Origin: Candidatus Amesbacteria bacterium
Lineage (GTDB): Bacteria; Patescibacteriota; Microgenomatia; CAZETR01; Amesbacteraceae
Reading direction: 5' to 3'
Assembly: GCA_963736875.1 (NCBI GenBank)
Contig: CAVTQH010000003.1
Location: 129,756-193,755 of the forward strand
Length of the DNA: 64,000 nt
In this document: in pieces, positions 1-56,300 of the stretch
How the letters are laid out: every line of letters begins with the position of its first letter
How positions within the stretch are numbered: the stretch's first letter is position 1
Translations under genes and position numbers: made by a program
The notes under the pieces: model-generated
The model's input: the letters and a program-made list of their open reading frames with translations, nothing else
Databases searched by the model: none
What the model was told of the DNA's origin: nothing

Positions 1-2601
1 ACAATTACAATCCCGGCAGAGGATGGATATATCTTACCGCGGGGAATTATATTTTCAGGTCAACGGGGTGCCGGACCGGGGGTTATTGGCTGGATTGGCC
101 GAATAATTCCTGCAGGGCTTACGGGCAGGTTGATGACAGGCTGCTTATTAACGGAGTCTGGCTTTGGGGAGGGAGCAGTTCATGGGTAGGTTATGGGGGT
201 GATAACGGTAATTTTTGCAGTTCAGGAATGGCGTCGCATCAGGGCAGCATTACTATTATCTCGGACGGATGGTATATTTTTCAATTTGACCAGCTGTACT
301 GGCCTGAAACCAAATTCTGGGTAGATTACAGCATAAATGGCGGGGCGACGTGGAATTATATTACAGCTGCAATGCTCAGGTCCTGTAATCCGGGGAGTTC
401 TCCCACTCCAATGCCTACAAAAACCTGCAATATTTCTGCACCGGCTACAGCTACCTGCGGTATACCGTTTACAGTGAGTTGGAACGGGCAGGGAAATCCC
501 GGTGAAACCAATCAGGTAAGAGCCTTCCTGGAAAGACAGGACGGGGGCAGACTGCCCACCCCGATTGCATACCCTTCATATCTGTTTCCGTCCCCGACAC
601 CGGCTTTTTATTCATATAACCTGGGCTTCTGCAACAGCATCAACGGAGTCAGCTGCACCGATTCGGAACCCGTAGGCGGGATAATTCCGCCGGGAAATTA
701 CTGGGTGCACTGCGATGTGCCGGGAAATGTCAACCAGTGCTCAGGCAATCCGATGTGCGTTTTCCTGGGATGGGCCTGCACCTGGCCGACCTGCGCCGGT
801 ACGGGTTATGACTCAATTACCGTTTCGGCTCCGGTCCAGCCCACACCCGGCGGAGTTACGGTTACGCATAGCTGCAATTACACTTCAGCCAGGGCGAATA
901 TAAGCTGGAGTCCCGCTCCGGGGGCGACTTCCTACAGAGTGCTGGTTGACGGTGTGGCAAATCCGACAATATATCCAAACAGTCCCGCTAGTAATCTGCC
1001 GGTAGCCTGCGGGGTGCATACTTTCCGGGTCAGGGCTCTGAATGCCTGCGGCAGTACCGGGACAAGCGCCGCAGTAAGTGCCGGAGTATGTCCCACACCG
1101 GGGACACCGGCAAACCCCACGGTAACAGTCAACTGCAGTTCGGTGGATGTGAATTGGGCGACAGTACCCCTGGCAGCATATTACCAGGTCAGAAAAGACC
1201 TGGTGGCGCAGCCGACCGTAGTGGCTCCGACACAGACCGTTGCCCAAATCTGCGGGACAGCCAGCAATTATGCAGTCAGAGCGATTTCAGCCTGCCGGGC
1301 AAACAGCCCGTATTCCGGAAATACTGCCGGGCCGGTGGCGGTATGCACACCCATCCCGCCCATCCAATATCACGGCGGATTGCCTGATTGACGATATTGT
1401 AGTCAATTGGACCGACAATGCGACTAATGAAACCGGTTACGGAATAGCCCGGACACCGGACATGCCCGGTGAATATGTATCACTTCCGGCTAATACCGTT
1501 ACCTACACTGATAACAATCCGCCTGTTCCCCCTGCGGCATTTAATTACCAGATACGATCGGAAATCGCATCGAATCCTCCTGCCTGCCGGTACGGGGAGA
1601 GGAGCGGACCGTCCCCATTTCATCCCGCCTGTCCGGTGTACACCAGATGGTTTCAGTGCCAGGGAGGGGGTGCGGCGGCGGCTACCGGGAATTTGGGTGT
1701 CCAACTGCCGCCGACCGGTGTTCCGGATAATCCCCAGGCTAAACTGATATTGCAGGGGGAACCGACTGTTGCTCCTCCTAATCCCGCCGGCCTTCCGGGA
1801 ATGGTTTTCGGGAACGGGTTTACCGGGAATTTGACCCCGAATAACGTGAGTATCAAAGGATGGCTGGTACCCATCGGATCAGGGTGGGGGGGAGGCGGCG
1901 GCAGCGGGATGACGGAGAAGGTGGAAAATCAATATACATCGATCAGGGAAAGGATACTCTCCCGGGCTTCCGCGTATCACCTGAGCGATTCCGTATTAAC
2001 CGCCGGTGATTTGAATAATGCCATTGATGCAGCGAACGGATCTTCCAGTACGAGAAGAACGTTTACATATGAATACGGGGGAGCCTTTAATGTGGCAATT
2101 ATTGAGACGACCGGGTCAATTACTTTGGGTGCTGCACCGGGTAATCCTCTGGCCAGTCTGCAAACCAGAAAGGCAGTCCTGCTGGTTCCCGGGGATGTAA
2201 CGATAGGGAGCAGCATACTGAGTGATTCAAATCCGACCGGCAACCCGGCAACCCAGGGCTTTGTGGCAATTATTGCTTCGGGTTCCGTAACTGTGGAGAC
2301 CAGTGTGGCGGTAACCCCCACGCCCGTGACTATGCCTTTTCAGGATGATATAGCGAATTCGGCATTTCCCGCGCATATTTCCGCGGTGATTTACGCCCAG
2401 GGCAATTTTACGGTGAATTCAGTACTCAACCAGCTGAAAATTGACGGAGGAGTGGTGGCCATGGGAGCGATTAACATCAGTCCCGGGCGGACGAGCAAGG
2501 GACCGTGGCCGGCCGAGTTTGTGCACTACAACCCGGGAATGATGCGGATCTTAAGAGACGTGGGATTGAGACGGAAAGTGGTGTTTGAACCGATACCGTA
2601 G
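1..2601 (+). pseudogene. 3' portion (5' end lies upstream of the window) of a PA14/FN3 cell-surface protein paralog, interrupted by a 1-nt insertion at ~1366
   Basis: The frame of ORF 228..1391 stays open back to nt 3, so the gene runs off the window edge. From nt ~418 to 2601 the sequence is near-identical at the nucleotide level to 5264..7439 of the 1085-aa gene. Copy 1 reads 'gcccatccaat' where copy 2 reads 'gccctccaat'. This gives a premature stop at 1391, and the +1 frame ORF 1240..2601 continues the homology to an identical stop context. Confidence 0.55.
418..2601 (+). repeat. Segmental duplication, copy 1 of 2 (matches 5264..7439, ~2.2 kb, high nt identity)
   Basis: Direct comparison shows long identical runs, e.g. 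'aaaacctgcaatatttctgcaccggctacagctacctgcgg' in both copies. Both copies end at the same stop codon 'ccgataccgtag'. Confidence 0.85.
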
Positions 2602-2603
2602 GT

Positions 2604-2631
2604 TTGACATGTAAAAAACCGGATTTATAAT
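2604..2631 (+). promoter_or_regulatory. Consensus sigma70-type promoter TTGACA-N16-TATAAT for the lipoprotein gene, overlapping the stop codon of the upstream copy
   Basis: TTGACA at 2604-2609 and TATAAT at 2626-2631. The GTG start codon is at 2640, only 8 nt after the -10 box, so the mRNA is leaderless or has a very short leader. Confidence 0.55.
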
Positions 2632-2639
2632 CGGTCCAG

Positions 2640-4133
2640 GTGAAAAAAGAACATTTAAGCAAAAGGGAAGCCATTATTGCAGTAGGGTTACTTACCATAG
2701 CTATGGTGGCGTGTGGAAAAGAAATAACCGGCCAAATTATATTACCAACAACCGAACCTTCCGTAACTTCAGGTGTAATATATCCCGGAGAAACCATAAC
2801 TCTGACTTCAACTTTAAAACCCTTAGATTCACCAGTGCCTTTGGAAACAATTACTCCCACACCTCAAGAATCGTGCTTGATCGACGGGACAGTATTTGCG
2901 GAGGGGAACCGCCATCCCGATGGGGGATACAGGTACCCGGCGGATATGAGTAAAATTGATAAACCCTTAAATCAGTGGAACCAGGCGGAAAGAACAACGA
3001 TTGTGGATGCAGCCGGGAACTCCATCTATGACGGGGTGGGATACATCGCGAATTCAGGCTGGGTTTCTGATAATAAATTAAATTATGCCGGTACATGGAT
3101 CGGCAGGGGCTGCGGATATGGGCTGATGTTTGAAGACCAGAACGGCCAAGATGTTTGGGCAACCAATGTTCTGGGTATGGCCATGGGCCGGCCGGACGGA
3201 AATGGTCTGGGTTTCGGTGCCCAACCAATTCCCAACCCAGGGATAGAAGGTCGGATGGAACTGATTGTCGGCAGAGAGCAGACGGCCGTCTGGGTCAGAG
3301 GTACAGACCAGATCATCGGCAAATATGATCCGGTTACCCAAGTTTGGAATTTTGAGCAGGCATACAGGCCTACTGAGGCATATGAATTGTATGAATTATC
3401 ATCCGAACAGCTGGCGGCAAAACATTTATACGGCTCCGGTTTTGAAATAAATGCTGAGTATGAAGGCGTTCCGGTTAATTTTACCGCAGTGACATCCGAA
3501 GGAAATCTTATAAGGTACAATCAAACCCGCGGATGTATGCTTAATACGGAGATGGCGAAATACGGGTATCCGGCTGAAGACAGGATAGCGAAAATGGTTT
3601 TTTTGGGGCATTATGTCGGTTACCTTCGGGATAATCGTTTAAGCGAGACTCAATTTACCTTCGAAGAATATATGGCAAACCTGAAAGCGGGAAGAGATAT
3701 GGGTTATGCAATATACGGAATCAAGACGGATCAGGATACGGGTGAATTTTTGGTCGACCCACTTAAACCGGTTGAGTATGTGGTCACAGAATCCGAAACG
3801 GATCCGAATGGCAGAGGAACAGCGCTTCTTAATGACAACGCCAGTAGACGCGGGTATATACAGTTAGAAAACGGGGGATTAAGGATAATCCAGCAATTAG
3901 CAGGCTCTGCTTCAAATATGTTTAATTTCTGCATCGTCACAGGCAACGAGCTATCCACGAGTTTATTATCATTAGGGGGTGAGTTGGGGGCTTTACAGGG
4001 CTGGGGCCAATTTACTTATCCCGGTTTTGTTTACCCTATTACAAAAGTTGAACTTGAAAATACTGTAATTAATTTACAAATTTATTATAACTCCAATAAA
4101 AAAATTAGCAGTAACGTATTTGCGGCGCCGTAA
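2640..4133 (+). CDS. Hypothetical secreted lipoprotein (497 aa)
   Basis: Long ORF whose N-terminal signal peptide ends in a lipobox-like 'LTIAMVACGKE'. It has no recognisable catalytic motifs. A GTG start is implied by the ORF track. Confidence 0.6.
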   Translation: MKKEHLSKREAIIAVGLLTIAMVACGKEITGQIILPTTEPSVTSGVIYPGETITLTSTLKPLDSPVPLETITPTPQESCLIDGTVFAEGNRHPDGGYRYPADMSKIDKPLNQWNQAERTTIVDAAGNSIYDGVGYIANSGWVSDNKLNYAGTWIGRGCGYGLMFEDQNGQDVWATNVLGMAMGRPDGNGLGFGAQPIPNPGIEGRMELIVGREQTAVWVRGTDQIIGKYDPVTQVWNFEQAYRPTEAYELYELSSEQLAAKHLYGSGFEINAEYEGVPVNFTAVTSEGNLIRYNQTRGCMLNTEMAKYGYPAEDRIAKMVFLGHYVGYLRDNRLSETQFTFEEYMANLKAGRDMGYAIYGIKTDQDTGEFLVDPLKPVEYVVTESETDPNGRGTALLNDNASRRGYIQLENGGLRIIQQLAGSASNMFNFCIVTGNELSTSLLSLGGELGALQGWGQFTYPGFVYPITKVELENTVINLQIYYNSNKKISSNVFAAP

Positions 4134-4181
4134 CACTGCAGTTTGTATAGTCATTTGTTTTTGTGATAATCTGAACGAGTA

Positions 4182-7100
4182 ATGAGAATGAAGTTGTTCT
4201 TGTCCTTCGCTGTATTTTTTGGCTTTTTTTTCTTGTATATTTTCAAAGCTGATAGAGTTTATGCTGCCCCTTGTAGCGGCGCCACGATTAACTGCGGGCA
4301 TATAAATTATTCCGGCGGTTGTACATGCAGTGATCCGGGTGGAAATCCATGTACTGATCCAGGAGCTGCATGTGGCTCCGGAGGTACATGTACTTGTTCC
4401 CTGCCGTGGTGTAATTGTGTGGGAGGTCAGCCTGGTGACGGCTGGCATAACTGCAGCACGCTGTCCTGTCCCAGCCCTTGCGGGGTAGGTAATTGTGCCT
4501 GCGAAGGAAGTTGCAGCGGCGGCGGCGGTTTTTGCGGGGATGGAATTTGTGGAAACAGTTTTGGTGAAGCTTGTGATGTTTGTGTAGCAGATTGCGGTGG
4601 TTGTAGTGCGCCTCCCCCCCAATGCGATGCGGTGGATTCTGTTCATAGAAGCTGCGCTTATTATGGTTGGAATGCAGCGACCAGGGGACTGATGGTTGAA
4701 ACATATGTGTATGACACGGTGAGTTGTTCACCCAATCATTTTCCCGGGTATACCTGCCGCATTCAGGATGCACCTGTGAGTGTTGACACAAAATTGTCAG
4801 ATACGGAAGGAATTCGAGGCCCTAAGGACATTCTTGGTAATTCCGGGTGCTGGCCGGGTATGAGGGGGGTAGCTTGGGGAGGGGAAGTTGAGGATGGCAA
4901 CGGAAATCACGGATTTATTAACATCAAAATCGCCGGGGTGTGGAGTTTTAAAGTGGAGGAACTTGAACTGGATGGTGAATGGTTTCATGTGATTGTAGAT
5001 GGTGTTGTGGTGGTAAGTAATGGTCCGGGAGGTTATGCCTGTGAAGTTGACGGCGATGAGGATGGTACTTGTTGGGAAGGGAGTGTCAACCTGAGTCAAG
5101 GCTGGCACACTTTTCAGGTGCAGGTGGGTGGTTGGGGTTGGAGTAATTCGATATTTCACACTTTCATCAGACCTCCGGGTGTGGGATGGTTTATCCATAT
5201 AAATAATTCTTACCCTGCATACTATGAAACGAGTCCATGTGTGCAGGCGATGCCTCAAAAAACCTGCAATATTTCTGCACCGGCTACAGCTACCTGCGGC
5301 ATACCGTTTACGGTCAGCTGGAACGGGCAGGGAAATCCCGGTGAAACCAATCAGGTAAGAGCCTTCCTGGAAAGACAGGACGGGGGCAGACTGCCCACAC
5401 CGATTGCATACCCTTCATATCTGTTTCCGTCCCCGACACCGGCTTTTTATTCATACAACCTGGGTTTCTGCAACAGCGTCAACGGAGTCAGCTGTACCGA
5501 TTCGGAACCCGTAGGCGGGATAATTCCGCCGGGAAATTACTGGGTGCACTGCGATGTGCCGGGAAATGTCAACCAGTGCTCAGGCAATCCGATGTGCGTT
5601 TTCCTGGGATGGGCCTGCACCTGGCCGACCTGCGCCGGTACGGGTTATGACTCAATTACGGTTTCGGCTCCGGTCCAGCCCACACCCGGCGGAGTTACGG
5701 TTACGCATAGCTGCAATTACACTTCAGCCAGGGCGAATATAAGCTGGAGTCCCGCTCCGGGGGCAACGTCATACAGAGTGCTGGTTGACGGTGTGGTAAA
5801 TCCGACAATATATCCAAATAGTCCCGCTAATAATCTGCCGGTAGCCTGCGGGGTGCATACTTTCCGGGTCAGGGCTCTAAATGCCTGCGGCAGTACCGGG
5901 ACAAGCGCCGCAGTAAGTGCCGGAGTATGTCCCACACCGGGGACACCGGCAAACCCCACAGTAACAGTCAACTGCAGTTCGGTGGATGTGAATTGGGCGA
6001 CAGTACCCCTGGCAGCATATTACCAGGTCAGAAAAGACCTGGTGGCGCAGCCGACCGTAGTGGCTCCGACACAGACCGTTGCCCAAATCTGCGGGACAGC
6101 CAGCAATTATGCAGTCAGAGCGATTTCGGCCTGCCGGGCAAACAGCCCGTATTCCGGAAATACTGCCGGGCCGGCGGCGGTATGCACACCCATCCCGCCC
6201 TCCAATATCACGGCGGATTGCCTGATTGACGATATTGTAGTCAATTGGACCGACAATGCGACTAATGAAACCGGTTACGGAATAGCCCGGACACCGGACA
6301 TGCCCGGCGAATATGTATCACTTTCGGTTGATGCCGTTACCTACACTGATAACAATCCGCCTGTTCCCCCTGCGGCATTTAATTACCAGATACGATCGGA
6401 AATCGCATCGAATCCTCCTGCCTGCCGGTACGGGGAGAGGAGCGGCCCGTCTCCATTTCATCCCGCCTGTCCGGTGTACACCAGATGGTTTCAGTGCCAG
6501 GGAGGGGGTGCGGCGGCGGCTACCGGGAATTTGGGTGTCCAACTGCCGCCGACCGGTGTTCCGGATAATCCCCAGGCTAAACTGATATTGCAGGGGGAAC
6601 CGACTGTTGCTCCTCCTAATCCCGCCGGCCTTCCGGGAATGGTTTTCGGGAACGGGTTTACCGGGAATTTGACCCCGAATAACGTGAGTATCAAAGGATG
6701 GCTGGTACCCATCGGATCAGGGTGGGGGGGAGGCGGCGGCAGCGGGATGACGGAGAAGGTGGAAAATCAATATACATCGATCAGGGAAAGGATACTCTCC
6801 CGGGCTTCCGCGTATCACCTGAGCGATTCCGTATTAACCGCCGGTGATTTGAATAATGCCATTGATGCAGCGAACGGATCTTCCAGTACGAGAAGAACGT
6901 TTACATATGAATACGGGGGAGCCTTTAATGTGGCAATTATTGAGACGACCGGGTCAATTACTTTGGGTGCTGCACCGGGTAATCCTCTGGCCAGTCTGCA
7001 AACCAGAAAGGCAGTCCTGCTGGTTCCCGGGGATGTAACGATAGGGAGCAGCATACTGAGTGATTCAAATCCGACCGGCAACCCGGCAACCCAGGGCTTT

Positions 7101-7439
7101 GTGGCAATTATTGCTTCGGGTTCCGTAACCGTGGAGACCAGTGTGGCGGTAACCCCCACGCCCGTGACTATGCCTTTTCAGGATGATATAGCGAATTCGG
7201 CATTTCCCGCGCATATTTCCGCGGTGATTTACGCCCAGGGCAATTTTACGGTGAATTCAGTACTCAACCAGCTGAAAATTGACGGAGGAGTGGTGGCCAT
7301 GGGAGCGATTAACATCAGTCCCGGGCGGACGAGCAAGGGACCGTGGCCGTCCGAGTTTGTGCATTACAACCCCGGGATGATGCGGATCTTAAGAGACGTG
7401 GGATTGAGACGGAAAGTGGTGTTTGAACCGATACCGTAG
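4182..7439 (+). CDS. Secreted Cys-rich / PA14-like / 3x fibronectin-III surface protein (1085 aa) with a conserved C-terminal domain of unknown function
   Basis: Signal peptide 'MRMKLFLSFAVFFGFFFLYIF'. A dense CxC/CxxC block spans residues 30-150. The PA14-like segment reads 'GVWSFKVEELELDGEWFHVIVDGVVVV'. There are three FN3-like units, e.g. 'TVTHSCNYTSARANISWSPAPGATSYRVLVDG...FRVRALNACGS'. Confidence 0.8.
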   Translation: MRMKLFLSFAVFFGFFFLYIFKADRVYAAPCSGATINCGHINYSGGCTCSDPGGNPCTDPGAACGSGGTCTCSLPWCNCVGGQPGDGWHNCSTLSCPSPCGVGNCACEGSCSGGGGFCGDGICGNSFGEACDVCVADCGGCSAPPPQCDAVDSVHRSCAYYGWNAATRGLMVETYVYDTVSCSPNHFPGYTCRIQDAPVSVDTKLSDTEGIRGPKDILGNSGCWPGMRGVAWGGEVEDGNGNHGFINIKIAGVWSFKVEELELDGEWFHVIVDGVVVVSNGPGGYACEVDGDEDGTCWEGSVNLSQGWHTFQVQVGGWGWSNSIFHTFIRPPGVGWFIHINNSYPAYYETSPCVQAMPQKTCNISAPATATCGIPFTVSWNGQGNPGETNQVRAFLERQDGGRLPTPIAYPSYLFPSPTPAFYSYNLGFCNSVNGVSCTDSEPVGGIIPPGNYWVHCDVPGNVNQCSGNPMCVFLGWACTWPTCAGTGYDSITVSAPVQPTPGGVTVTHSCNYTSARANISWSPAPGATSYRVLVDGVVNPTIYPNSPANNLPVACGVHTFRVRALNACGSTGTSAAVSAGVCPTPGTPANPTVTVNCSSVDVNWATVPLAAYYQVRKDLVAQPTVVAPTQTVAQICGTASNYAVRAISACRANSPYSGNTAGPAAVCTPIPPSNITADCLIDDIVVNWTDNATNETGYGIARTPDMPGEYVSLSVDAVTYTDNNPPVPPAAFNYQIRSEIASNPPACRYGERSGPSPFHPACPVYTRWFQCQGGGAAAATGNLGVQLPPTGVPDNPQAKLILQGEPTVAPPNPAGLPGMVFGNGFTGNLTPNNVSIKGWLVPIGSGWGGGGGSGMTEKVENQYTSIRERILSRASAYHLSDSVLTAGDLNNAIDAANGSSSTRRTFTYEYGGAFNVAIIETTGSITLGAAPGNPLASLQTRKAVLLVPGDVTIGSSILSDSNPTGNPATQGFVAIIASGSVTVETSVAVTPTPVTMPFQDDIANSAFPAHISAVIYAQGNFTVNSVLNQLKIDGGVVAMGAINISPGRTSKGPWPSEFVHYNPGMMRILRDVGLRRKVVFEPIP
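5264..7439 (+). repeat. Segmental duplication, copy 2 of 2 (matches 418..2601)
   Basis: Same as above. The ORF-track peptides of 228..2601 and of the C-terminal 720 aa of 4182..7439 are almost identical. Confidence 0.85.
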
Positions 7440-7443
7440 AGAG

Positions 7444-7519
7444 TGGTGGACCCAGCGGGATTCGAACCCGCCGCCTCTCGCATGCCATGCGAACGCTCTA
7501 CCAAATGAGCTATGGGCCC
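7444..7519 (-). tRNA. tRNA-Ala (anticodon GGC), 76 nt with encoded CCA
   Basis: The reverse complement folds as a cloverleaf: acceptor GGGCCCA/TGGGTCC with G3:U70 (the Ala identity pair), D-stem GCTC/GAGC, anticodon stem TTCGC/GCGAG, loop ATGGCAT (anticodon GGC), T-stem GCGGG/CCCGC and T-loop TTCGAAT. It ends in ACCA. Confidence 0.85.
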
Positions 7520-7559
7520 AAGATTAAGGATCTATTTTAGCAAATTTATTGTGGACCAT

Positions 7560-7597
7560 GGGGGAATCGCACCCCCGTATCCGCAATGCGAATGCGG
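7560..7597. terminator. Two adjacent GC-rich hairpins between the end of the 7653..9722 (-) gene and the tRNA-Ala
   Basis: GGGGG-aatcgca-CCCCC at 7560-7576 and CCGCA-atgcgaa-TGCGG at 7581-7597. There is no U-tract, so this would not be a canonical intrinsic terminator. Confidence 0.25.
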
Positions 7598-7652
7598 CGC
7601 ACTACTACTATGCTAATGGCCCACTGAGACAGATATTATTTTACCAGAGGGG

Positions 7653-9815: not shown

Positions 9816-10517
9816 ATGCCGGTCAAAAACAGGGTGAAGATTTATAAAAGCGGGGGTATATACCATATATATAATAGGGGGATAGACGGAAAAGAGATAT
9901 TCCGCGGGGAGGAAGATATGGCGTATTTTATTGACGTCATCCGGCGCTACCTGGATCAATATAAGGAAGAACCTGAAAGCGGATATAAAACGGAACGGCC
10001 GTATTTAAGAAAACACAGGCAGGATATGAATTTACAGGGGAAAGTAGAATTGATGGCTTATTGTCTGATGCCGGATCATTTCCATATTATGGCCAGACAG
10101 CAGTCTGCCGAGGGAATTACCCAGCTGATGCGCCGGGTAATGACCAATTATGTGATGTACTTTAACAAAAAGTACAAAAGAAGGGGAGTACTTTTTGAAA
10201 ATGTGTACCGGGCAGTACTACTTCCTGATGACCGGGTGGTGGTCGGGCTTTCCAGGTATCTGCACTTAAATCCGGTTGCCCGGGTGGTAAAAAGGTTCGG
10301 TTTGGTGGAAACGGTAACGGTGTCATCACCTGAGTATTATATATACTCAAGTTATCAGAATTATTTGGGGTTAAGGCAGGAGGGGTGGGTTAAATCCGGT
10401 CCGGTATTGGACATGTTTGAAAGACTTTCTGAAAATCAGAAACAAAGTTACCGCCAGTACGTGGAGGGAGAGACTAAGAGAATAAAAGAAGAACTTTTTG
10501 ATTGGGTCCTGGAATAA
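9816..10517 (+). CDS. IS200/IS605-family Y1 (HUH) transposase-domain protein with a ~90-aa C-terminal extension (RAYT-like, possibly domesticated)
   Basis: HUH motif 'PDHFHIMAR', catalytic-Tyr helix 'FENVYRAVLL', and an N-terminal 'YHIYNRGIDGKEIF' typical of IS200-like TnpA. At 233 aa it is longer than canonical TnpA. Confidence 0.7.
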   Translation: MPVKNRVKIYKSGGIYHIYNRGIDGKEIFRGEEDMAYFIDVIRRYLDQYKEEPESGYKTERPYLRKHRQDMNLQGKVELMAYCLMPDHFHIMARQQSAEGITQLMRRVMTNYVMYFNKKYKRRGVLFENVYRAVLLPDDRVVVGLSRYLHLNPVARVVKRFGLVETVTVSSPEYYIYSSYQNYLGLRQEGWVKSGPVLDMFERLSENQKQSYRQYVEGETKRIKEELFDWVLE

Positions 10518-10556: not shown

Positions 10557-11270
10557 TTAACGGAACAGAATAAGGGTGAGAATGAAGGTGGTAAAAAAAG
10601 ATAACAAAGCAACAATATACGGGAGAGGAGAACGGCGGGATATGTTTTCTGATACGGAGGAAGGTGTAGTCCGGGGGGCAGCGGCGGCTGAATGGATCGG
10701 GGTAACATCGGGGATAAGATTAGCCAGATCCTGAAAAGGATCCGGGATATTTTCCCGGGGAGTGGTTGCAGTCAAATCTTCCGGTATCCGGTGAGTGATG
10801 CGGGAGTACTCGGGAGGGGTGGTAACCGGTTCGGGGGTGGTGTCGGGATAGTAGACAGGAGGCGAAAAAGACGGTTCCGGGGACGGAATGACCGGCGGAG
10901 ATGACGCAAAAGTTTGAGCAGGGGGAGGTGTTTGGACCGGCGGAGGCGGAGGGGTCATATGGGGAATCGAAGGCAGAGGAAATATTTCCTGTGTGGCGCA
11001 ATAATCGATAAATTTTTTCAGTGATGATAAACGGCGTTTGGCTGTGGCCGGGGGATTGGAACTGGCCAAATATTCTTCATAACCCCGGAGAAATTCAGAA
11101 GAGATAAAAAACGGGAGAGACTGGGGGAGTAAATTCTGGCGCTGGTTTTCGGTGATAAAGGCGAAAAATAACCTAAGGTCCGAAAGATAGTTTTTAATGG
11201 TATTGACAGAGGACGTCTGAAGAGAAATATACTTTTTAAATTCCTGGATATAGTAGCGGGGGTAATCCAT
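10557..11270 (-). CDS. Membrane-anchored protein with a phage-integrase N-terminal SAM-like (core-binding) domain only, plus Pro-rich linker and C-terminal TM helix
   Basis: N-terminus 'SVNTIKNYLSDLRLFFAFI...AKRRLSSLKKFIDYC' matches the XerD/integrase N-terminal-domain pattern. There is no catalytic R-K-H-R-H-Y region. It ends in the hydrophobic stretch 'YIVALLSFFTTFILTLILF'. Confidence 0.6.
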   Translation of the reverse strand: MDYPRYYIQEFKKYISLQTSSVNTIKNYLSDLRLFFAFITENQRQNLLPQSLPFFISSEFLRGYEEYLASSNPPATAKRRLSSLKKFIDYCATQEIFPLPSIPHMTPPPPPVQTPPPAQTFASSPPVIPSPEPSFSPPVYYPDTTPEPVTTPPEYSRITHRIPEDLTATTPRENIPDPFQDLANLIPDVTPIHSAAAAPRTTPSSVSENISRRSPLPYIVALLSFFTTFILTLILFR

Positions 11271-14083: not shown

Positions 14084-14673
14084 GCGGGTTTGATGACTGG
14101 GTTGAAAAACGCAGATGGGAATTGGGGTTGATGCTTCTGGGGCTAATCCTGACCGGTCTGGGGATATTTATATGGAAATCCGAAGGGAATACACCCGGAG
14201 CGCAGGTTGTAAAAGTGGAAGGTACAGCAACAGGGGCCGGGCAATTGGTGGTGGATGTCAGCGGAGCGGTCAACCGTTCGGGTGTATATACATTACCTGC
14301 CAATACACGCGTGGAGGAAGCCATAAAAGCGGCCGGGGGATTGTCTCCCGAGGCAGATGTAAAGTGGTATGAAGCCAATGTAAACAGGGCGCGAAAAATT
14401 ACAGACGGCGAAAAGATTTACATACCCAAACTGAACACAGGCTCAAGCACAACAGATTCTGTACAAGTTTTGCAGGATACACAAATTACAAACCGGATAA
14501 GTATAAACGGGGCCGGTGTATCCGAGCTGGATACACTTCCCGGTATTGGTCCGGTGACCGCCCAAAAAATTATTGCCAACAGACCATATCAGAGTCTGGA
14601 GGAACTACTTACTAAAAAAGTGGTGGGGCAGAAAGTTTTTGATCAAATAAAAGAGCAAATAAGCCTGTGGTAA
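14080..14673 (+). CDS. comEA: ComEA-like competence protein (TM anchor + SLBB + helix-hairpin-helix)
   Basis: N-terminal TM helix. The C-terminal HhH reads 'ISINGAGVSELDTLPGIGPVTAQKIIANRP'. A 4-nt ATGA overlap with the leuS stop indicates translational coupling. Confidence 0.8.
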   Translation: MSGFDDWVEKRRWELGLMLLGLILTGLGIFIWKSEGNTPGAQVVKVEGTATGAGQLVVDVSGAVNRSGVYTLPANTRVEEAIKAAGGLSPEADVKWYEANVNRARKITDGEKIYIPKLNTGSSTTDSVQVLQDTQITNRISINGAGVSELDTLPGIGPVTAQKIIANRPYQSLEELLTKKVVGQKVFDQIKEQISLW

Positions 14674-15647
14674 ACATCAGATGGATGGCAGCGGGACTTT
14701 TGGCCTTAATATTTTTAGTCAGATACCAGGGAGTGAGGGAACAGACAATTTCTCAGACGGCTGTTAATCCGATGGGAAGCATCAGGATGATGATGCAAAA
14801 GAATCTGATCAGGTGGCTGCCGGGAGATACGGGACCGCTGGCTTCGGGAATACTTTTAGGGGGTAATGAGGGTTTGTCCAAAAAGGCCAAACAGTCTTTT
14901 ATCAGATCGGGCATCATGCATATTACGGCTGCTTCGGGATATAACGTGACGGTTGTGGCGGGCTGGATGATGGCTTTGGGAATAAGATTTGTGGGCCGGA
15001 GAAAGGCCATCTGGCTGGGGGTGGGGGGTACATTAATATATATGTGTTTAGCCGGCCTTTCGACGGCGGTGATCAGGGCCGGAGTGATGGCTATATTGAC
15101 TCTGATAGCTTCTTTTTGGGGGAGGAAAGCAGACGCCGGCTGGACGCTAATTCTTGCCTGCCTCCTGATGCTTTCCGTAAATCCCGCGTGGATTACGGAT
15201 ATCGGATTTCAACTGTCGGTGGCGGCAACTGCGGGGTTGATCTGGATAAATACGGTTCCCGGTAAAAGCCTATTGAGTGATTTTAAAACCACTGTTGTGG
15301 CTCAAATTACTACCCTACCGATAATTCTTCACCACTTCGGCAGTTTAAGTGTGATATCCCCCGCGGTAAACGGAGCGGTATTGTGGGCAGTGCCTCCGGT
15401 AATGCAGATTTCAGCGCTAGCTTCCATTGCCGGTATTATCTGGAAGCCGGCAGGCAGTATATTGGCTTTGCTGGCCTGGCCGTTTCTGACATTAATGGTC
15501 CGGGTGGTGGAATGGTCCGCTTCATGGCCGGGTGCCAGCCTGACGCTTTCCCGGCTGGGGTGGGGATGGGTGGGAGTTTACTACCTGGTGATATTTTTAA
15601 TCATCAAAATTTCAAATAAAAAGTCAGGAAATTTATGGGGAGTCTGA
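14667..15647 (+). CDS. comEC: ComEC/Rec2 'competence' membrane domain protein (N-terminal part of a split ComEC)
   Basis: Polytopic membrane ORF containing the 'ILLGGNEGLS...IMHITAASGYNV' competence-domain motif. It overlaps the comEA stop by 7 nt. Confidence 0.75.
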   Translation: MVNIRWMAAGLLALIFLVRYQGVREQTISQTAVNPMGSIRMMMQKNLIRWLPGDTGPLASGILLGGNEGLSKKAKQSFIRSGIMHITAASGYNVTVVAGWMMALGIRFVGRRKAIWLGVGGTLIYMCLAGLSTAVIRAGVMAILTLIASFWGRKADAGWTLILACLLMLSVNPAWITDIGFQLSVAATAGLIWINTVPGKSLLSDFKTTVVAQITTLPIILHHFGSLSVISPAVNGAVLWAVPPVMQISALASIAGIIWKPAGSILALLAWPFLTLMVRVVEWSASWPGASLTLSRLGWGWVGVYYLVIFLIIKISNKKSGNLWGV

Positions 15648-16369
15648 AATGGTTAATATTGGCGGGTGTAACCATCTGGATGGCAGTGCTGGCTCTGCCG
15701 GATAAGAAACTGCATGTGGTATTCTGCGATGTGGGACAGGGGGATGCCATTTTGATCAGCCGGGGAACCGATCAACTGCTGGTTGACGGCGGACCGGATG
15801 ATAAAGTGATCCGCTGCCTGTCCGATCATATGCCTTTTTATGACCGAAGAATAGAAACAGTGGTCTTGACTCATGACGATTCCGATCACAGCCGGGGAAT
15901 ATCCTATGTTAGAGATAGATATAGTGTTATATATTATGAGACGGCTCTGGTTAGGGGAGATACGGTGAAGACGGGAGGGTTTGAGTATCGGGTGGAGTGG
16001 CCGGTGGAAAGATTAATAAATAATGAGAAAGATCAGGAAGACAATACGCAGGCAACTGTCGGCCGGATTGAGTACGGTCAATTTTCCCTGCTTTTGACTT
16101 CCGACACACCCACAAAACTGTATCCGCCGGAAACAGGAATCGAGGTAGTTAAAGTCCCGCATCACGGAAGTAAAACCGATTTTGATGCGGGGTGGTGGCG
16201 CCAGGTCCGGCCGGCGCTGGCAGTGATATCGGTGGGAAAGAACAGTTACGGACATCCGGTGCCGGAAGTAATGAAAGCAATCAGTGATCTGGGGATCGGG
16301 ATTTTACGGACTGACCGGGAGGGAGATATTGAAATTGTCAGCGACGGGTTAAAATGGTGGGTGAAATGA
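15635..16369 (+). CDS. comEC: ComEC C-terminal metallo-beta-lactamase domain protein (second part of the split ComEC)
   Basis: 'VVFCDVGQGDAILI', 'THDDSDHSRG' and 'VPHHGSKTD' are MBL-fold ComEC motifs. It lies in a different frame from the upstream ORF with a 13-nt overlap. Confidence 0.75.
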   Translation: MGSLKWLILAGVTIWMAVLALPDKKLHVVFCDVGQGDAILISRGTDQLLVDGGPDDKVIRCLSDHMPFYDRRIETVVLTHDDSDHSRGISYVRDRYSVIYYETALVRGDTVKTGGFEYRVEWPVERLINNEKDQEDNTQATVGRIEYGQFSLLLTSDTPTKLYPPETGIEVVKVPHHGSKTDFDAGWWRQVRPALAVISVGKNSYGHPVPEVMKAISDLGIGILRTDREGDIEIVSDGLKWWVK

Positions 16370-50531: not shown

Positions 50532-51227
50532 TTAATTAATCACCCACCAATTAATATTGATATCCTGCCTGGCGACCTTATCCATAGAGATAATGAAGCG
50601 ACCGGAATCGGTGGCGGTAGCAGCCAGGGCTACAGGGAAATCGGGCGTGACGAAAATGGCAGAACCGGTGGATACGGCATCGGTTTGGATTGTCAGCTGC
50701 TGGGTGCCGGTGGGCAGGACAGCTCTGCCGATGGAAGCTGAAGAAGTTGCCACGCCGGAATCCGTACCCAGGACTTTGACTTTTTCAGTTTTAACTTCTT
50801 TGGCAATCAGGGTTCCGGTAATGGTCAGGTCTCCGGAATCAGTAAGGATGGCGGCGCCGTTTTGCAGCGACAGGTAGCCGATGAGGGATGACAAGTCTCC
50901 GAGAATGTCATCAAACTTAAGAAGCCCCACCCGGAGAATTCCGGCAATGGTGGTATCGGAAAGAACTGACGGAGCGGTGACGGTCAGGCGACCGGAGATG
51001 GTGGCGTCTCCCAAAAGGTCCAGACTTGAAGCGGAGACGGGAGAAAGAGCAGCTGAAACCGAAGCCATATTCATACTTGCCAACTGGGCGGAAATGGAGG
51101 CAATTTGAGAATCGAGAAGCTGACAAGGAAATATTGCAGGCCGCGGTGCCGATGTCAGAGGCGATGATCTGACCTTGGACAGCCAGATTGCCGGTGGTGT
51201 CGAAAGCCAGGGCATTGACCGGATCAA
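50532..51227 (-). CDS. C-terminal fragment ORF of the mega-gene (frameshifted relative to 50917..53337)
   Basis: The first ~45 aa look out of frame. Protein-like sequence starts at 'LLDSQIASISAQLASMNMASV'. It overlaps the preceding ORF by ~310 nt. Confidence 0.4.
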   Translation of the reverse strand: MIRSMPWLSTPPAIWLSKVRSSPLTSAPRPAIFPCQLLDSQIASISAQLASMNMASVSAALSPVSASSLDLLGDATISGRLTVTAPSVLSDTTIAGILRVGLLKFDDILGDLSSLIGYLSLQNGAAILTDSGDLTITGTLIAKEVKTEKVKVLGTDSGVATSSASIGRAVLPTGTQQLTIQTDAVSTGSAIFVTPDFPVALAATATDSGRFIISMDKVARQDININWWVIN

Positions 51228-53337
51228 CCCAAGAAGCGGAAGCGGATATGGATATGGTATCGGCAGGATTGGCCGGGTCCCAGGCAGTCAGAGCCTTGCC
51301 GATGGTAAAGCCGGGTTTGACGGATTTCGAAGCGGTGCCGGGCAGGGTAGAGGCGGTAAGGTAATCACCAATGGCGATAGCCGGGGATGCGGGATCAATT
51401 TTGACCGGGATCTGGCCGGAAATGGCTATCAGAACTTTGTCGGGACCATCCTGACCGCCGGAAAATCCGGATTCGGATGAAACCACACCTAAAAGCCTGG
51501 AGTCGTATGGCGTATCTGCCCTGGTGACACCATCAGGACCGAGTGCCGCCACCTCACCCGGAGTGAATTGACTGCCGTCTTTGACAAAATATTCGGCATA
51601 ATTGGTATTGTCGGTGGTGTATGTAATACTGCCGGTTTCGGTACTGGCGATGGCTCCCCGGATGATACCGCTGTCATCTTTGAAAACAAGATGATTTTCA
51701 CCCGGGACGGAGGTGGTGGTGAGGGTGCCGGTCATACTAACATCTGCGGGAAGAGTGAGATTGCCGGAGTCGTCAAAAGCCAGAGAGAAATTAGGATCAG
51801 CCCAGATCGGATTAACATAGGCCAAGATTTTGTCTTTACCGGAGGACGGGGTCCAGGATTCCAGGGCTTTGGCGATGGTAAACCCGGGTGTGCTGGCTTT
51901 TATTGCCCGACCGGCATCGGAGCTGGAAGTGAGCAAGTCTCCGGGTTGGATAGGTTGAGAGGTGGAAGAGATTTTAATAGCGATTTGACCAACAATACCG
52001 ACCATGACAGTGTTTGGACCCTCCTTACCTCCCAAGAATGCCGGATTTTCAGAGACGATTCCGATCATTTTTGAATCATTTGCAGAGGAACTTTTGGTTG
52101 CTCCCGAGGGTGACTGGGTTACGATTTCTCCGACTTCGAAAGAAGTGTCGGCAGAAGCAAAATACTCAGCAAAGTCGGCTGAACCTGATTGATATGTCGT
52201 ATCTAACGCACCGTTAGACCGGATATTACCGACCATGATTCCGCTACCATTCAGGAAACTGATGAAGCGGTTGGTGACAGCCCCATTTCCGGTATAACCA
52301 AGTTTGACTGCCAGACCGGCGGAATTGGGACCGTTGAACATATTTTCGATCATGGCGGATGCAGTGGATGACTGGGAATCGGAGACGGTGAATTTTAGAG
52401 TAGCCGAGCCGGTACCGATGAGAACCTTGCCGTCGGTGGCGGTATCAAAGACGATGTTGCCGGAGTTGTAGGTTTTAAGAGTCAGGTTATTGCATTCAAA
52501 AGATTCTCCGGCACGGATTGACAGCGGGCCGTAGGATTCAAATACGGAAGCGGTTTGGTTGGTCATAACCAGGTCATAGGCCATGGAGACATCACCGGCG
52601 GCGGTAAACTCGTGAGGTATGGAGGACGTGACCTTGGTTTCGGAGACGGAGAAGAGACCGGAACCGGCGGAAGTGATGTTGAAAAGATTGCCGGTAGTAT
52701 CCCCAGTTGCACCGATATTAATCCGGAAGAGGTCACCGGAGGCGGTGGCGGGTGAAGACGGGGACCAGTCCAGAGAAGCCAGTCTGCCGGAGGTCAGGGA
52801 AGTGGCGGTGGATGTCAGATTCAGGAGATTGCCGGTAGTCCAGGTGTTGCCGGAGGTAGTCAGGTTTAGGAGTGAACCGCTGGTAAGAGCGGAAGCGGTA
52901 ATACCCATGACATTTCCGGTGGTGGTGACGGTGGAGTTGATGGCAGCAACCCCGCCGGCTGCAGCCTCCACACCGTAGGCTGCAAACTTGGCGGAAGCGG
53001 TGGATGTGGCTCCCACCAGCAGGTCAAAAGTGGAATTGACAGGGGAAACCTGCTGATCAGTCAGTTGCCAGTAGTTGGTACCGGCACCTCCGGAACAGGC
53101 AGACCAGGAAAGAGTGCCGGAGCCGTTACTGGACAGACACTGGGTACCGGTGGAATCAACATTGGGAAGAGTCCAGATCCTGGAGGTGGTGATGGCATCG
53201 GGACCTTTGAAACCGACGTATTCGGAACCGCCGGCAGCCAGTTCCCGGAATCTGAAGTTCGGCAGTGTTTCCGGCTCCCGTATTGTACGGATACATATTG
53301 ATGTCACCGTTGTTACCCAGGACAAAGCGGGTGGCAC
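50917..53337 (-). CDS. Mega-gene segment (806 aa): repeated ~100-aa modules 'GIVSENPAFLGGKEGPN...GQI.(I/V)K(I/V)...PGFTI(A/G)KAL' preceded by a 'FRFRELAAGGSEYVGFKGPDAITTS' module
   Basis: Its N-terminal 'NFRFRELAAGGSEYVGFKGPDAITTSRIWTLPNVDSTGTQCLSSNG' is the continuation expected after 'GDINMYPYNTGAGNTAEL' at the end of ORF 53156..62137. That motif recurs in-frame three times inside that ORF. The last ~70 aa look out of frame. Confidence 0.55.
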   Translation of the reverse strand: MPPALSWVTTVTSICIRTIREPETLPNFRFRELAAGGSEYVGFKGPDAITTSRIWTLPNVDSTGTQCLSSNGSGTLSWSACSGGAGTNYWQLTDQQVSPVNSTFDLLVGATSTASAKFAAYGVEAAAGGVAAINSTVTTTGNVMGITASALTSGSLLNLTTSGNTWTTGNLLNLTSTATSLTSGRLASLDWSPSSPATASGDLFRINIGATGDTTGNLFNITSAGSGLFSVSETKVTSSIPHEFTAAGDVSMAYDLVMTNQTASVFESYGPLSIRAGESFECNNLTLKTYNSGNIVFDTATDGKVLIGTGSATLKFTVSDSQSSTASAMIENMFNGPNSAGLAVKLGYTGNGAVTNRFISFLNGSGIMVGNIRSNGALDTTYQSGSADFAEYFASADTSFEVGEIVTQSPSGATKSSSANDSKMIGIVSENPAFLGGKEGPNTVMVGIVGQIAIKISSTSQPIQPGDLLTSSSDAGRAIKASTPGFTIAKALESWTPSSGKDKILAYVNPIWADPNFSLAFDDSGNLTLPADVSMTGTLTTTSVPGENHLVFKDDSGIIRGAIASTETGSITYTTDNTNYAEYFVKDGSQFTPGEVAALGPDGVTRADTPYDSRLLGVVSSESGFSGGQDGPDKVLIAISGQIPVKIDPASPAIAIGDYLTASTLPGTASKSVKPGFTIGKALTAWDPANPADTISISASASWVDPVNALAFDTTGNLAVQGQIIASDIGTAACNISLSASRFSNCLHFRPVGKYEYGFGFSCSFSRLRFKSGPFGRRHHLRSPDRHRSVSSFRYHHCRNSPGGAS

Positions 53338-56300
53338 CCGAGGCGGATGCGGCGAAGAGATTTTGAGCGCCGGTACCGTTTAATATCAAAGCTGCTTTGC
53401 CAGGGTTATTGGCAGCCAGATCAAATGATCCGGAGTTATTGTATTCAACTATGTTGCCATTTCCGGTGTTATTTTCGATAGTTCCGGCAGTGTTTCCAAG
53501 AAGATTGTTTCCGGATACGTACATGTTGGAATTTGTGGAACCGCCAAGATCGATAGCGTAACCTGCACAACCGGTGATGGTGTTACCGGTGATGGTGCCG
53601 TGGGTGTTACTGTTATCGTTAATGTAAATTCCATCATCGTCACCTACGGAACTGATAGTGTTACCGGTAATGGAAAAGTTATCCGAGTCGTAAATATCTA
53701 TAGCACCGGAAGTGGTATCGATATCGTAGATGGAATTTCCGGAGATGACGGTATTGTTTCCTGTGACTGTGATGGCTGTTCCTCCGGTGCCATAACCATC
53801 GAAAACGTTACCGGTTATAGTATCCCTTCCACCGGTTCCGGTAGTTGATACTGCTTTCACCCCGGCGGTTGGGTATATGAAATAGTTATTACTTACAACT
53901 GATAAAAATCCCAGGATTATGATTTGCTCGGATCCGACTCCGTTTCCAATATTTTCAAAAGTGTTTCCGGAAATAATATTACCCGTCGAAGCCGTACTGG
54001 TCCAAATCGAATGGTCGGACTGACCGGAGAATAACGAATTAATGATTTTAGAGTCAAAGATTTCATACAAATTCATCCCGGTTAGTCCGTTGGTAATTTT
54101 AAGGTTTTCAAAAACCAGATGAACATGTTCACCGGACGAGTAGAGAGAGTCGATGATATTTTGAGTAATACCGGCATTAGTGATGGTCATGTCATGAAAT
54201 TCGATATCGTCAATACCATCTGAGAGGCTGACTGTGGCCGATCCGCTTCCGCCGCTAATTGATGTCCGGTCACTACCGGCTCCATAGAATTTAAGAGCTT
54301 TTGTGACAGTGATGTTTTCTGAATACGTGCCGGGGGAGATAAAGATGGAGCCACCGGTGGGGGCGTTGGTGATGGCAGCAGCGACAGTGGTATCAGTACC
54401 CCCGCCGTTGGCATCTACAACCCGGTCATATTTAGCCCGCTCGAAAGCGGCGGATTCAGAAGCGATGTTGGTCCAGTTACCGGCGCTGTTTCTCAGCTGC
54501 ATAACTCCTGAGTTGTCCCTGATACCGTAACCGCTGGCTCCGGCGGTGGTACCGAAGTTGAGATATGAAGAAGCATTGAGGACCAGTTCACCGGCGTAAG
54601 TTAATCTGAAGCGGGTGGTACCGGCAGCGGAAGCAGTCAGCAGATCCATATTATCAGTGGAGAGCTGGTTTATTATCACAGCGGCTTTGCCACGAGTTAA
54701 GGATCCGGGAAGAACCACCCGGGCGGAGGAGGTGGCAGTAGCACCCAGAAGAACATCTTCCATAATGTTTCTTTGGGTAAGAGCACCGGTGCCGGTTTCC
54801 TGCCAGTTGCTGGAACCTGATCCACTGGAACAGGCAGACCAGGAAAGAACACCGGAGCCGTTACTGGAAAGACACTGGGTGCCGGTGGAGTCAACATTGG
54901 GCAGGGTCCAGATTCTGGAAGTGGTGATGGCATCGGGACCTTTAAATCCGACGTATTCCGAACCGCCGGCTGCCAGTTCCCGGAATCTTAATTCAGCAGT
55001 ATCTCCGGAGTCGGTATGGTACGGATACATATTAATATCGCCGTTACTGTCGACGGTGAACAAGGTGTTGTTGGCTTTGTTGAATTTCAGGAAGTTACCT
55101 GAAAAGCCATTGCCGCCGGCACCGGTGTTATCAATATCGGCAAAGAGGACATTGCCCGAGAAAGCGGAATTTCCGCCCTGGCCCAACTGAACGATGTTGC
55201 CGGTGGTGATGGCGGAGGCGGTAGCGGTCAGGATATTGCCGGTAAGAGTACCTGAGCTCAAAAGGGCAGCGCTGCCGGTGTGGGCGCCGGAAGCATTGAG
55301 GTAGAATGCCCCGTTGGTAAAGGCTGCGGTACTGCCTGTCGTGAGAGAAAGCAAGCTGCCGGTCAATCCTGTACCAGAAGAACCAACAGCCAGGAGATTA
55401 CCGCCGGTTGCGGAATTGGCAGCCAAATTGAGCAGCCCCGTACCAGTGTATATGCCGGAGGTGGTGATGGTTGCACCGTTGCCGGCGGTAGCTGCTCCCA
55501 TGTTTAAGTCAAGCAGTTCGCCGTTGGTGGTCATGGAAGTGCCGCCGATGATTTCCATGCCGGTGCCCGAAGTAAGGCCGGTAAAGGAAAGCTTTGAGCC
55601 GTCGCCGGTGGTCAGGGAATTGGCAACGACGTTAATCAGGCCGTCGGCAGCTCCGGTTCCGGTGTACACGCCGGTGGAAGTGACGGTGACGCCGGCACCC
55701 ACGGTATTGGCTCCCAGGACCAGGTCAACCAGTTCACCGCCGGTGGCCATGGTGGCGGCTGATCCGGTGATCCTCAGACCCGAGCCGGTGGTCAGAGAGC
55801 TGGCAATAATGGAAACAGCATTGTTGGTAGTAGCGGGAGTCCCGATGGCGGTGAAGTAGGCAGAAGCGGTAGCGGTATCACCGACAAATAAATCCTGGGT
55901 GGTGTTTAAGGAAGCCAGACCGGTATTGGTGTTAACCAGCTGCCACTTACTGGTACCGGTGCCTCCTCCGCACGAAGACCAGGAGAAAACTCCGGCACCA
56001 TTACTGGACAGACACTGGGTTCCGGAGGAATCAACATTGGGCAGGGTCCAGATTACGGATGTGGTGATGGCATCGGGACCTTTGAACCCGACGTATTCGG
56101 AACCACCGGCTGCCAGTTCCCGGAATCTTAATTCAGAGGTGTTGCCGGTGGCGGTACCGTAAGGATACATATTAATATCGCCGTTACTGTCGACGGTGAA
56201 CAAGGTGTTGTTGGCTTTGTTGAATTTCAGGAAGTTACCTGAAAAACCATTGCCGCCGGCACCGGTGTTATCAATATCGGCAAAGACGACATTGCCCGAG

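Follow-up and report, generated by a model that had tools for sequence, protein, structure and literature searches.

Does a single extra nucleotide that splits a gene in two record the recent loss of that gene, a switch in its expression, or a flaw in the sequence as deposited? The question is raised by a 64,000-nt stretch of a Candidatus Amesbacteria contig (CAVTQH010000003.1, positions 129,756 to 193,755; assembly GCA_963736875.1), referred to below as the window, which opens with two same-strand genes, gene 1 and gene 2, that share a long and nearly identical 3′ module. Gene 1 starts ~750 nt before the window, with the signal peptide MKQYKNFLKVLLLLLVLFYIFS, and within the module it carries one base more than gene 2, at which its reading frame breaks. 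We consider it rather probable that this base is a consensus or polishing artefact, and that genes 1 and 2 are two intact paralogues made alike by duplication or conversion of the module. The origin of the base as an artefact is something that we infer rather than observe, as is any choice between gene conversion and duplication of the module.

The repeat itself is plain to see. BLASTN and global alignment give a single collinear match, window 411-2601 against 5250-7439, of 2,191 columns at 98.45% identity, and in the global alignment 34 substitutions and one 1-nt gap separate copy 1 of the module from copy 2. Chance is ruled out for a 2.2-kb match at 98% identity. An initial annotation of this DNA had described near-identical copies of ~2.2 kb, which alignment confirms; the starts given there, 418 and 5264, were placed slightly too far in, the actual ones being 411 and 5250. 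Both edges of the repeat are abrupt. Upstream of 411 and 5250 identity is random-like and the DNA unalignable, while at the 3′ edge similarity is lost right after the common TAG stop (2599-2601 and 7437-7439) that, as previously described, ends both copies.

The one gap in this alignment is the extra base in copy 1, at 1362, just as it had first been noticed. Here copy 1 reads cccatcccgcccAtccaat (in longer context, cccgcccAtccaat) and copy 2 reads cccatcccgccctccaat (longer, cccgccctccaat). Gene 1 runs in its upstream frame as far as the TGA of 1389-1391, nine codons beyond the extra base, and the +1 frame is open over 1240-2601, or 453 codons; the listing of open reading frames (ORFs) confirms both the end of the one and the length of the other. 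The frameshift is present in the deposited sequence, since the public annotation of the 193,912-nt contig already has gene 1 as two proteins, P0001 of 713 aa and P0153 of 379 aa (from ATG 1462 to 2601). Gene 2 is annotated there as P0158, of 1,083 aa from ATG 4188. With the extra base, copy 1 is CCCGCCCATCC / CCGCCCATCC; the forms without it are CCGCCATCC or CCGCCCTCC, and removal of one base leaves gene 1 as a clean frame of ~1,116 codons with no stop inside. An internal restart that would make the downstream ORF work was considered and rejected: no ribosome-binding context can be recognised at ATG 1462, and a protein made from there would be without a signal peptide. The former is a weak argument, as Shine-Dalgarno sequences are generally missing from the genes of this window.

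What points to an artefact is the identity of the bases at the break. The affected codon has a synonymous third-position site at which copy 2 carries C, and at which two metagenome contigs with homologous modules, L004 and L005, carry A; copy 1 holds both alleles, and which of the two is extra is ambiguous. At every variable site between 1040 and 1495 copy 1 has the outgroup state, and because these flanking sites keep it, the true codon of copy 1 is expected to be CCA. Measured against this outgroup codon, the extra base can be read as one more C in a run of C, which weakens the earlier argument that a real frameshift is plausible as the indel does not lie in a homopolymer; that argument depends on the alignment chosen. 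We suggest that this synonymous single-nucleotide polymorphism (CCA in copy 1, CCC in copy 2) is where the consensus mixed reads of the two near-identical modules, or of strain variants. Gene 1 would thus encode an intact protein of ~1,116 aa, with CTPIPPSNITADC as its junction peptide. A read error, which the initial annotation listed among other options, now looks the most likely of them, given the doubling of alleles at the site and its recurrence in other repeats of the window.

Selection on the module tells a similar story. The two copies differ by 23 synonymous and 11 non-synonymous changes, giving a ratio of non-synonymous to synonymous divergence (dN/dS) of 0.157 at a dS of 0.043. Downstream of the break gene 1 has no further stops or indels, and the relaxed selection expected of a pseudogene is not seen there. 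When changes are polarised with L004, five are specific to copy 1 and lie 3′ of the frameshift (1608, 2292, 2526, 2535 and 2538). All five are synonymous, an outcome with a probability of about 0.25^5 = 0.001 under neutrality. Because there is no decay downstream and selection is purifying, the frameshift is either extremely young or not real, and the young pseudogene that had been proposed becomes the less likely reading.

Other frames in the window are broken too. A giant, repeat-rich gene on the minus strand (50532-64000) runs off the end of the window. Three single-base edits, at ~62133, ~62897 and ~53257, fuse four of its ORFs into a frame of 4,360 codons with no stop; the break at ~53257 is a 1-nt insertion, and a further frame switch lies near 51000. 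Part of this gene is a tandem array (60654-64000) of 672-nt (224-codon) units in at least five copies, 92-98% identical. Within its 97.7%-identical repeats the single-base indels coincide with positions that differ from unit to unit: unit 3 has GC[C][G] against GCG or GCC in the others, and unit 4 misses a base where its neighbours have G or C. Where repeats are more diverged (46.8-49.9 kb and 57.4-59.4 kb), the gaps between them were also considered as frameshifts and were discarded, being compensated pairs or multiples of three. The conserved single-copy genes examined, namely those for LeuRS, TyrRS, ProRS, UppS and glycosyltransferases, are all intact. Single-base indels that break giant genes have been described in long-read metagenome assemblies, as have local errors in Illumina assemblies (bioRxiv 10.1101/2023.11.21.568195).

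How far, then, can a real frameshift be discounted? Were it real and very recent, gene 1 would be a newly inactivated or truncated paralogue, which we regard as possible but rather unlikely. Its product would be a secreted protein of 713 aa with the head and two FN3 domains, devoid of the third FN3 and the C-terminal domain, and the 379-aa downstream ORF, with no signal peptide, would be useless. The frameshift stands in the deposited assembly and annotation; set against CCA, it reads as a +C in a CC run, and thus as an ordinary slippage mutation, and loss of redundant paralogues is common. The giant gene would then be a pseudogene as well, which would fit a lineage that is shedding surface proteins. 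Such a history is nonetheless hard to square with a constraint that shows no relaxation (dN/dS and the five of five synonymous changes), with repaired frames of 1,116 and 4,360 codons that hold no stop at all, with indels that sit on paralogue-variable sites and carry the other copy's base, and with frame breaks confined to repeat-bearing genes. Regulation is far harder to credit, and we hold it very improbable that the extra base is a switch, whether by phase variation or by programmed +1 frameshifting at CCC-A that would yield the full-length protein. Paralogous surface-protein genes are typically phase-variable, tRNA-Pro is prone to +1 slippage at CCC-N, and the +1 frame is open across 1362. 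Against this, the site has no homopolymer or short tandem repeat tract, its longest run being CCC, which leaves the phase-variable antigen of the initial annotation unsupported. Programmed frameshifting finds no slow codon or stop in the A site (ATC comes next, and 27 nt separate the site from the 0-frame stop), nor is the feature conserved: copy 2, L004 and L005 stay in frame at the orthologous positions.

The artefact that we favour has its own difficulties. The coincidence of both alleles at 1362 is, taken alone, not very improbable, with an estimated probability of roughly 0.1-0.3 for an outgroup that is 15% diverged, and the frameshifts at ~53257 and ~51000 show no clear pattern of allele doubling. 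A real +C slip in the short C-run of copy 1 would yield the identical sequence. Strict de Bruijn assembly of short reads invents no k-mers, and if the assembly is Illumina-only the insertion must exist in at least some reads; the argument for an artefact is drawn from the contig and not from reads. In addition, gene conversion and a one-off duplication of the module would each account for the repeat, and a surface or adhesin function for the two proteins is read from their architecture.

The relatives of the module show how the two genes may have come to share it. L004 and L005 carry the module at 82% amino acid and about 84.5% nucleotide identity; taken separately, nucleotide identity is 84.5% to L004 and 83% to L005, against 98.45% between copies 1 and 2. 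The two copies are closer to each other than to L004, and homogenisation is therefore later than that split. Homology of L004 and L005 with gene 2 starts at its residue 355, which is the exact edge of the repeat, and upstream of it lies a third, different head. The shared segment would thus be a discrete module, copied or homogenised within this lineage. The pattern is that of ongoing gene conversion between old paralogues, with paralogues more alike than orthologues and a tract whose ends coincide exactly with the head/module junction and the stop codon; the same excess of paralogue over orthologue similarity also fits one recent duplication of the module, copied onto a second gene. Sites polarised with L004 fall into 10 runs where 14.9 are expected, for a hand-calculated one-sided p of about 0.03; the result is marginal and the sites somewhat block-like. 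Recombination, if it is the cause, would keep the module uniform only as far as homology reaches, between head junction and stop codon. A scan of species representatives in a genome collection found two distant loci only, one in a Candidatus Amesbacteria metagenome-assembled genome (MAG) and one in a MAG labelled Gammaproteobacteria. Taken with the genes that the window carries, these loci suggest a host of small genome and Patescibacteria-like character. On L005 (1261-2310) homology to the module breaks off at gene 2 residue 739, with unrelated sequence beyond, which may reflect a rearrangement or a chimeric contig.

What the two genes do not share is their heads. These are ~360-390 aa long, align at about 25% identity (best BLASTP segment 27% identical, E=0.005), and are essentially unrelated. 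The two cannot be called tandem, recently duplicated genes, as only the 3′ module is alike. A recent tandem duplication of the whole gene, with N-terminal parts that diverged afterwards, might be suggested by the common strand, the 1.6 kb between the genes and the 98.4% identity over their 3′ 2.2 kb, and yet it has next to nothing in its favour once the heads are considered: a module dS of 0.043 is incompatible with heads at ~25% amino acid identity and unalignable DNA, identity falls within a few bases at 411/5250, the heads show no recognisable synonymous-site similarity, and L004 and L005 have a third head on the same module.

To what family, then, do these proteins belong? Direct searches say little: gene 1, gene 2, the gene between them (the mid gene) and the heads have no direct match in Pfam, NCBIfam or PDB sequences, and a word-indexed homologue search returned only its own paralogue for full-length gene 2 and nothing for an alignment of the heads. 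An exhaustive HMMER search with gene 2 proved more informative, yielding 1,127 relatives, which fall into two groups. One matches residues ~490-760 with repeat units that are present 5-22 times in giant proteins, and the other matches residues ~745-1085 with a domain that is always C-terminal, in proteins that open with a signal peptide and are Cys-rich at the N-terminus; none of the 1,127 relatives matches the gene 2 head. Both proteins of the window begin with a signal peptide, modelled by AlphaFold as a helix over residues 2-22 with a predicted local distance difference test score (pLDDT) >80, and next comes a Cys-rich stretch, which in gene 2 has 23 Cys between residues 30 and 150. Genes 1 and 2 encode members of an uncharacterised family of proteins that are secreted and probably sit at the cell surface.

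The FN3 label of the initial annotation survives in part. Neither gene 2 nor its module matches Pfam fn3 (PF00041) directly at E<=10. Among 40 repeat units gathered from the family, however, 16 do match it (best E 9.7e-13), a profile of the family's repeat units matches FN3 structures of titin, fibronectin and RPTP (E 2e-49 to 1e-9), and Foldseek with a low-confidence model of the module (pLDDT 44) returned FN3 arrays only. Homology to FN3 is thus supported indirectly, through intermediate sequences and fold. Gene 2 has three such Cys-containing units (Table 1); their counterparts in gene 1 occupy about 801-1623, where the frameshift hits the boundary between the second and the third. The PA14 label fares worse. 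In Pfam, with the threshold relaxed to E<=10, PA14 (PF07691) is matched by no head, be it that of gene 1, of gene 2 or of L004, nor was it found in NCBIfam or in PDB sequence or profile searches, and the AlphaFold2 head model, built from a 2-sequence alignment, is unusable as a test of the PA14 fold (pLDDT 33). All that remains for PA14 is a resemblance of motifs, by eye, across three heads.

The C-terminal domain offers a distant resemblance at best. Weak matches to DUF7305 (PF23981) occur in 8 of 18 homologous C-terminal domains (best E 4.5e-5) and cover a strand-rich part containing ...IYAQG.F......QLKIDG.....; the domain of the window gave no match. Full-length proteins all score under the Pfam gathering threshold, P0012 for example reaching 18.5 of the required 27 bits. 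Searched as a profile against the PDB, the domain alignment gave a best E of 0.87, the AlphaFold2 model of the module from a 10-sequence alignment (pLDDT 44) is too poor to assign the C-terminal fold, and a literature search found no paper that mentions DUF7305. DUF7305 itself is without known function, and the conserved tail GPYPAEFVHYNPxMxRILRDVGLRRK is specific to the gene 1/gene 2 family. Database proteins of the module family are often truncated, because JGI gene calls are shorter than the open frames: P0005 (379 aa) and P0004 (265 aa) are much shorter than the frames on L003 (1-1767) and L004 (3-2888), both of which run uninterrupted to the contig edge. That P0005 and P0153 are both 379 aa long is a coincidence that stems from a conserved Met.

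Table 1. Features of the two-gene locus and of the broken giant gene, in window coordinates.
Feature	Coordinates	Strand	Description	Source
Gene 1 upstream frame (frame 3)	1-1391	+	Residues 252-713 of annotated 713-aa protein P0001	ORF listing, annotation
Gene 1 head, in-window part (variable region)	1-410	+	DNA unrelated to gene 2 head	Alignment
Shared module, copy 1	411-2601	+	2,191 nt including the extra base	Alignment
Extra nucleotide	1362	+	Copy 1 CCG CC[C][A] TCC; copy 2 CCG CCC TCC; L004 and L005 CCG CCA TCC	
Gene 1 downstream part	1363-2601	+	+1 frame, open from 1240	ORF listing
Sigma-70 consensus	2604-2631	+	TTGACA-16-TATAAT, perfect, 12/12	
Mid gene	2640-4133	+	497 aa, lipoprotein-like signal (…LLTIAMVAC), no known family matched	
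Gene 2	4182-7439	+	Intact, 1,085 codons/aa	ORF listing
Gene 2 head	4182-5249	+	Signal peptide, Cys-rich stretch, beta-rich region PA14-like by eye alone	
Shared module, copy 2	5250-7439	+	2,190 nt	Alignment
Three Cys-containing FN3-like units, gene 2	5640-6461	+	Residues about 487-582, 583-671, 672-760	
C-terminal family domain	6417-7436	+	~340 aa, ends GPWPSEFVHYNPGMMRILRDVGLRRKVVFEPIP; distantly DUF7305-like	
tRNA-Ala(GGC)	7444-7519	-	Convergent with gene 2, starts 5 nt beyond its stop	
tRNA-Ala(CGC)	7551-7622	-	Convergent with gene 2	
Giant-gene ORFs	62855-63949, 62022-62606, 53156-62137, 50917-53337, 50532-51227	-		

The mid gene appears to be part of the same system. Relatives have it too, conserved downstream of their module genes (L006 1735-3267, L004 2936-3061 and L007 676-1014), and because of this conservation the arrangement of gene 1 with the mid gene looks ancestral. 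Set against the L006 homologue, it has a constant N-terminal part, ~245 aa at about 80% identity, and a variable C-terminal half that is unrelated. The sigma-70 consensus 3 nt past the stop of gene 1 and 8 nt ahead of GTG 2640 suggests that the lipoprotein gene has a transcript of its own, possibly a leaderless one. At the other end, the two tRNA-Ala genes mark the 3′ limit of repeat copy 2; a gene for an IS200-like Y1 transposase lies near the pair (9816-10517).

Several other genes of the window deserve mention. An ORF at 10557-11270 on the minus strand was considered as a frameshifted gene and rejected: its 237-aa product has its own C-terminal transmembrane helix, and so is unbroken. It combines a phage-integrase SAM-like N-terminal domain with a proline-rich linker and the helix, has no catalytic domain, and is not a truncated integrase. 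A ComEC-like gene is present as two ORFs, 14667-15647 with the Competence domain and 15635-16369 with the metallo-beta-lactamase domain, which overlap by 13 nt in different frames and could be a natural split or another frameshift. Three more giant genes (2,125, 2,032 and 2,904 aa; 27455-50520, minus strand) are intact, have a short N-terminal similarity in common and are interspersed with small ORFs (177-251 aa). At 43-48% G+C they lie below the broken giant gene, which has 53-61%.

What might the proteins do? Each comprises a signal peptide, a Cys-rich stretch, a variable beta-rich head of ~200 aa and a constant 730-aa module, the latter made up of one unassigned beta-rich segment, three FN3-like domains and the family-specific C-terminal domain of ~340 aa. 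From this architecture alone, the variable Cys-rich head may serve in binding, the three FN3-like domains as a stalk and the C-terminal domain in attachment or assembly. A cell-attachment system in poorly known bacteria is plausible. A more ambitious idea, which we consider doubtful, is that of a modular surface system with swappable heads in a small-genome, probably episymbiotic bacterium, in which unrelated Cys-rich heads are mounted on a stalk and C-terminal module kept uniform by conversion. The paired lipoprotein encoded by the mid gene would itself be half constant and half variable, and recombination at the domain junction could create new host- or substrate-binding specificities. In its boldest version the +1 site at CCC-A would be real and would tune the expression of one copy.

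The practical consequences are clearer. If the extra base is an artefact, single-base errors cluster in the near-identical repeats of this assembly and create false ‘pseudogenes’: gene 1 falls apart into 713 and 379 aa, and a second gene, at least 4,360 aa long, into no fewer than four pieces. Counts of pseudogenes and catalogues of proteins drawn from this genome would then be in error. Independently of the frameshift, the locus brings to light an uncharacterised family of secreted proteins, in which head and C-terminal domain have no Pfam, NCBIfam or PDB match, and in which interchangeable heads are combined with an FN3/C-terminal module and a lipoprotein partner that are both conserved.

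The family is uncharacterised, but the phenomenon is of a known kind, and its biological interest is modest; specialists in the evolution of surface proteins will not find it surprising. Yeast Flo/Epa proteins and bacterial RTX adhesins such as MpIBP likewise join a signal peptide and a variable N-terminal beta-sandwich head to a stalk of Ig/FN3-like repeats and a conserved C-terminal part, and belong to recombining multigene families. Their heads are of the PA14/GLEYA type, whereas no test supports PA14 here, and the proteins of the window have no RTX repeats, no GPI or LPXTG signal, and a C-terminal domain of a distinct family. The babA/babB/babC and sabA/sabB genes of Helicobacter pylori offer another parallel, with a divergent ligand-binding part, a near-identical remainder, sharp boundaries of identity between the two and frame-disrupting changes that switch single copies off. 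Hop adhesins are outer-membrane beta-barrel proteins, and their on/off switching relies on CT-dinucleotide tracts. Here, in contrast, there is no CT tract, the proteins contain FN3 and an unrelated C-terminal domain, and conversion is read from the sequence. For the broken frames themselves, the closest counterpart is found among the errors catalogued in metagenome assemblies (bioRxiv 10.1101/2023.11.21.568195). Those errors were proven with reads, while those proposed here are argued from a signature of allele doubling and from selection statistics; in both cases adjacent same-strand ORFs fuse after correction of one base, and giant or repetitive genes for surface proteins bear most of the breaks, with ordinary genes left intact.

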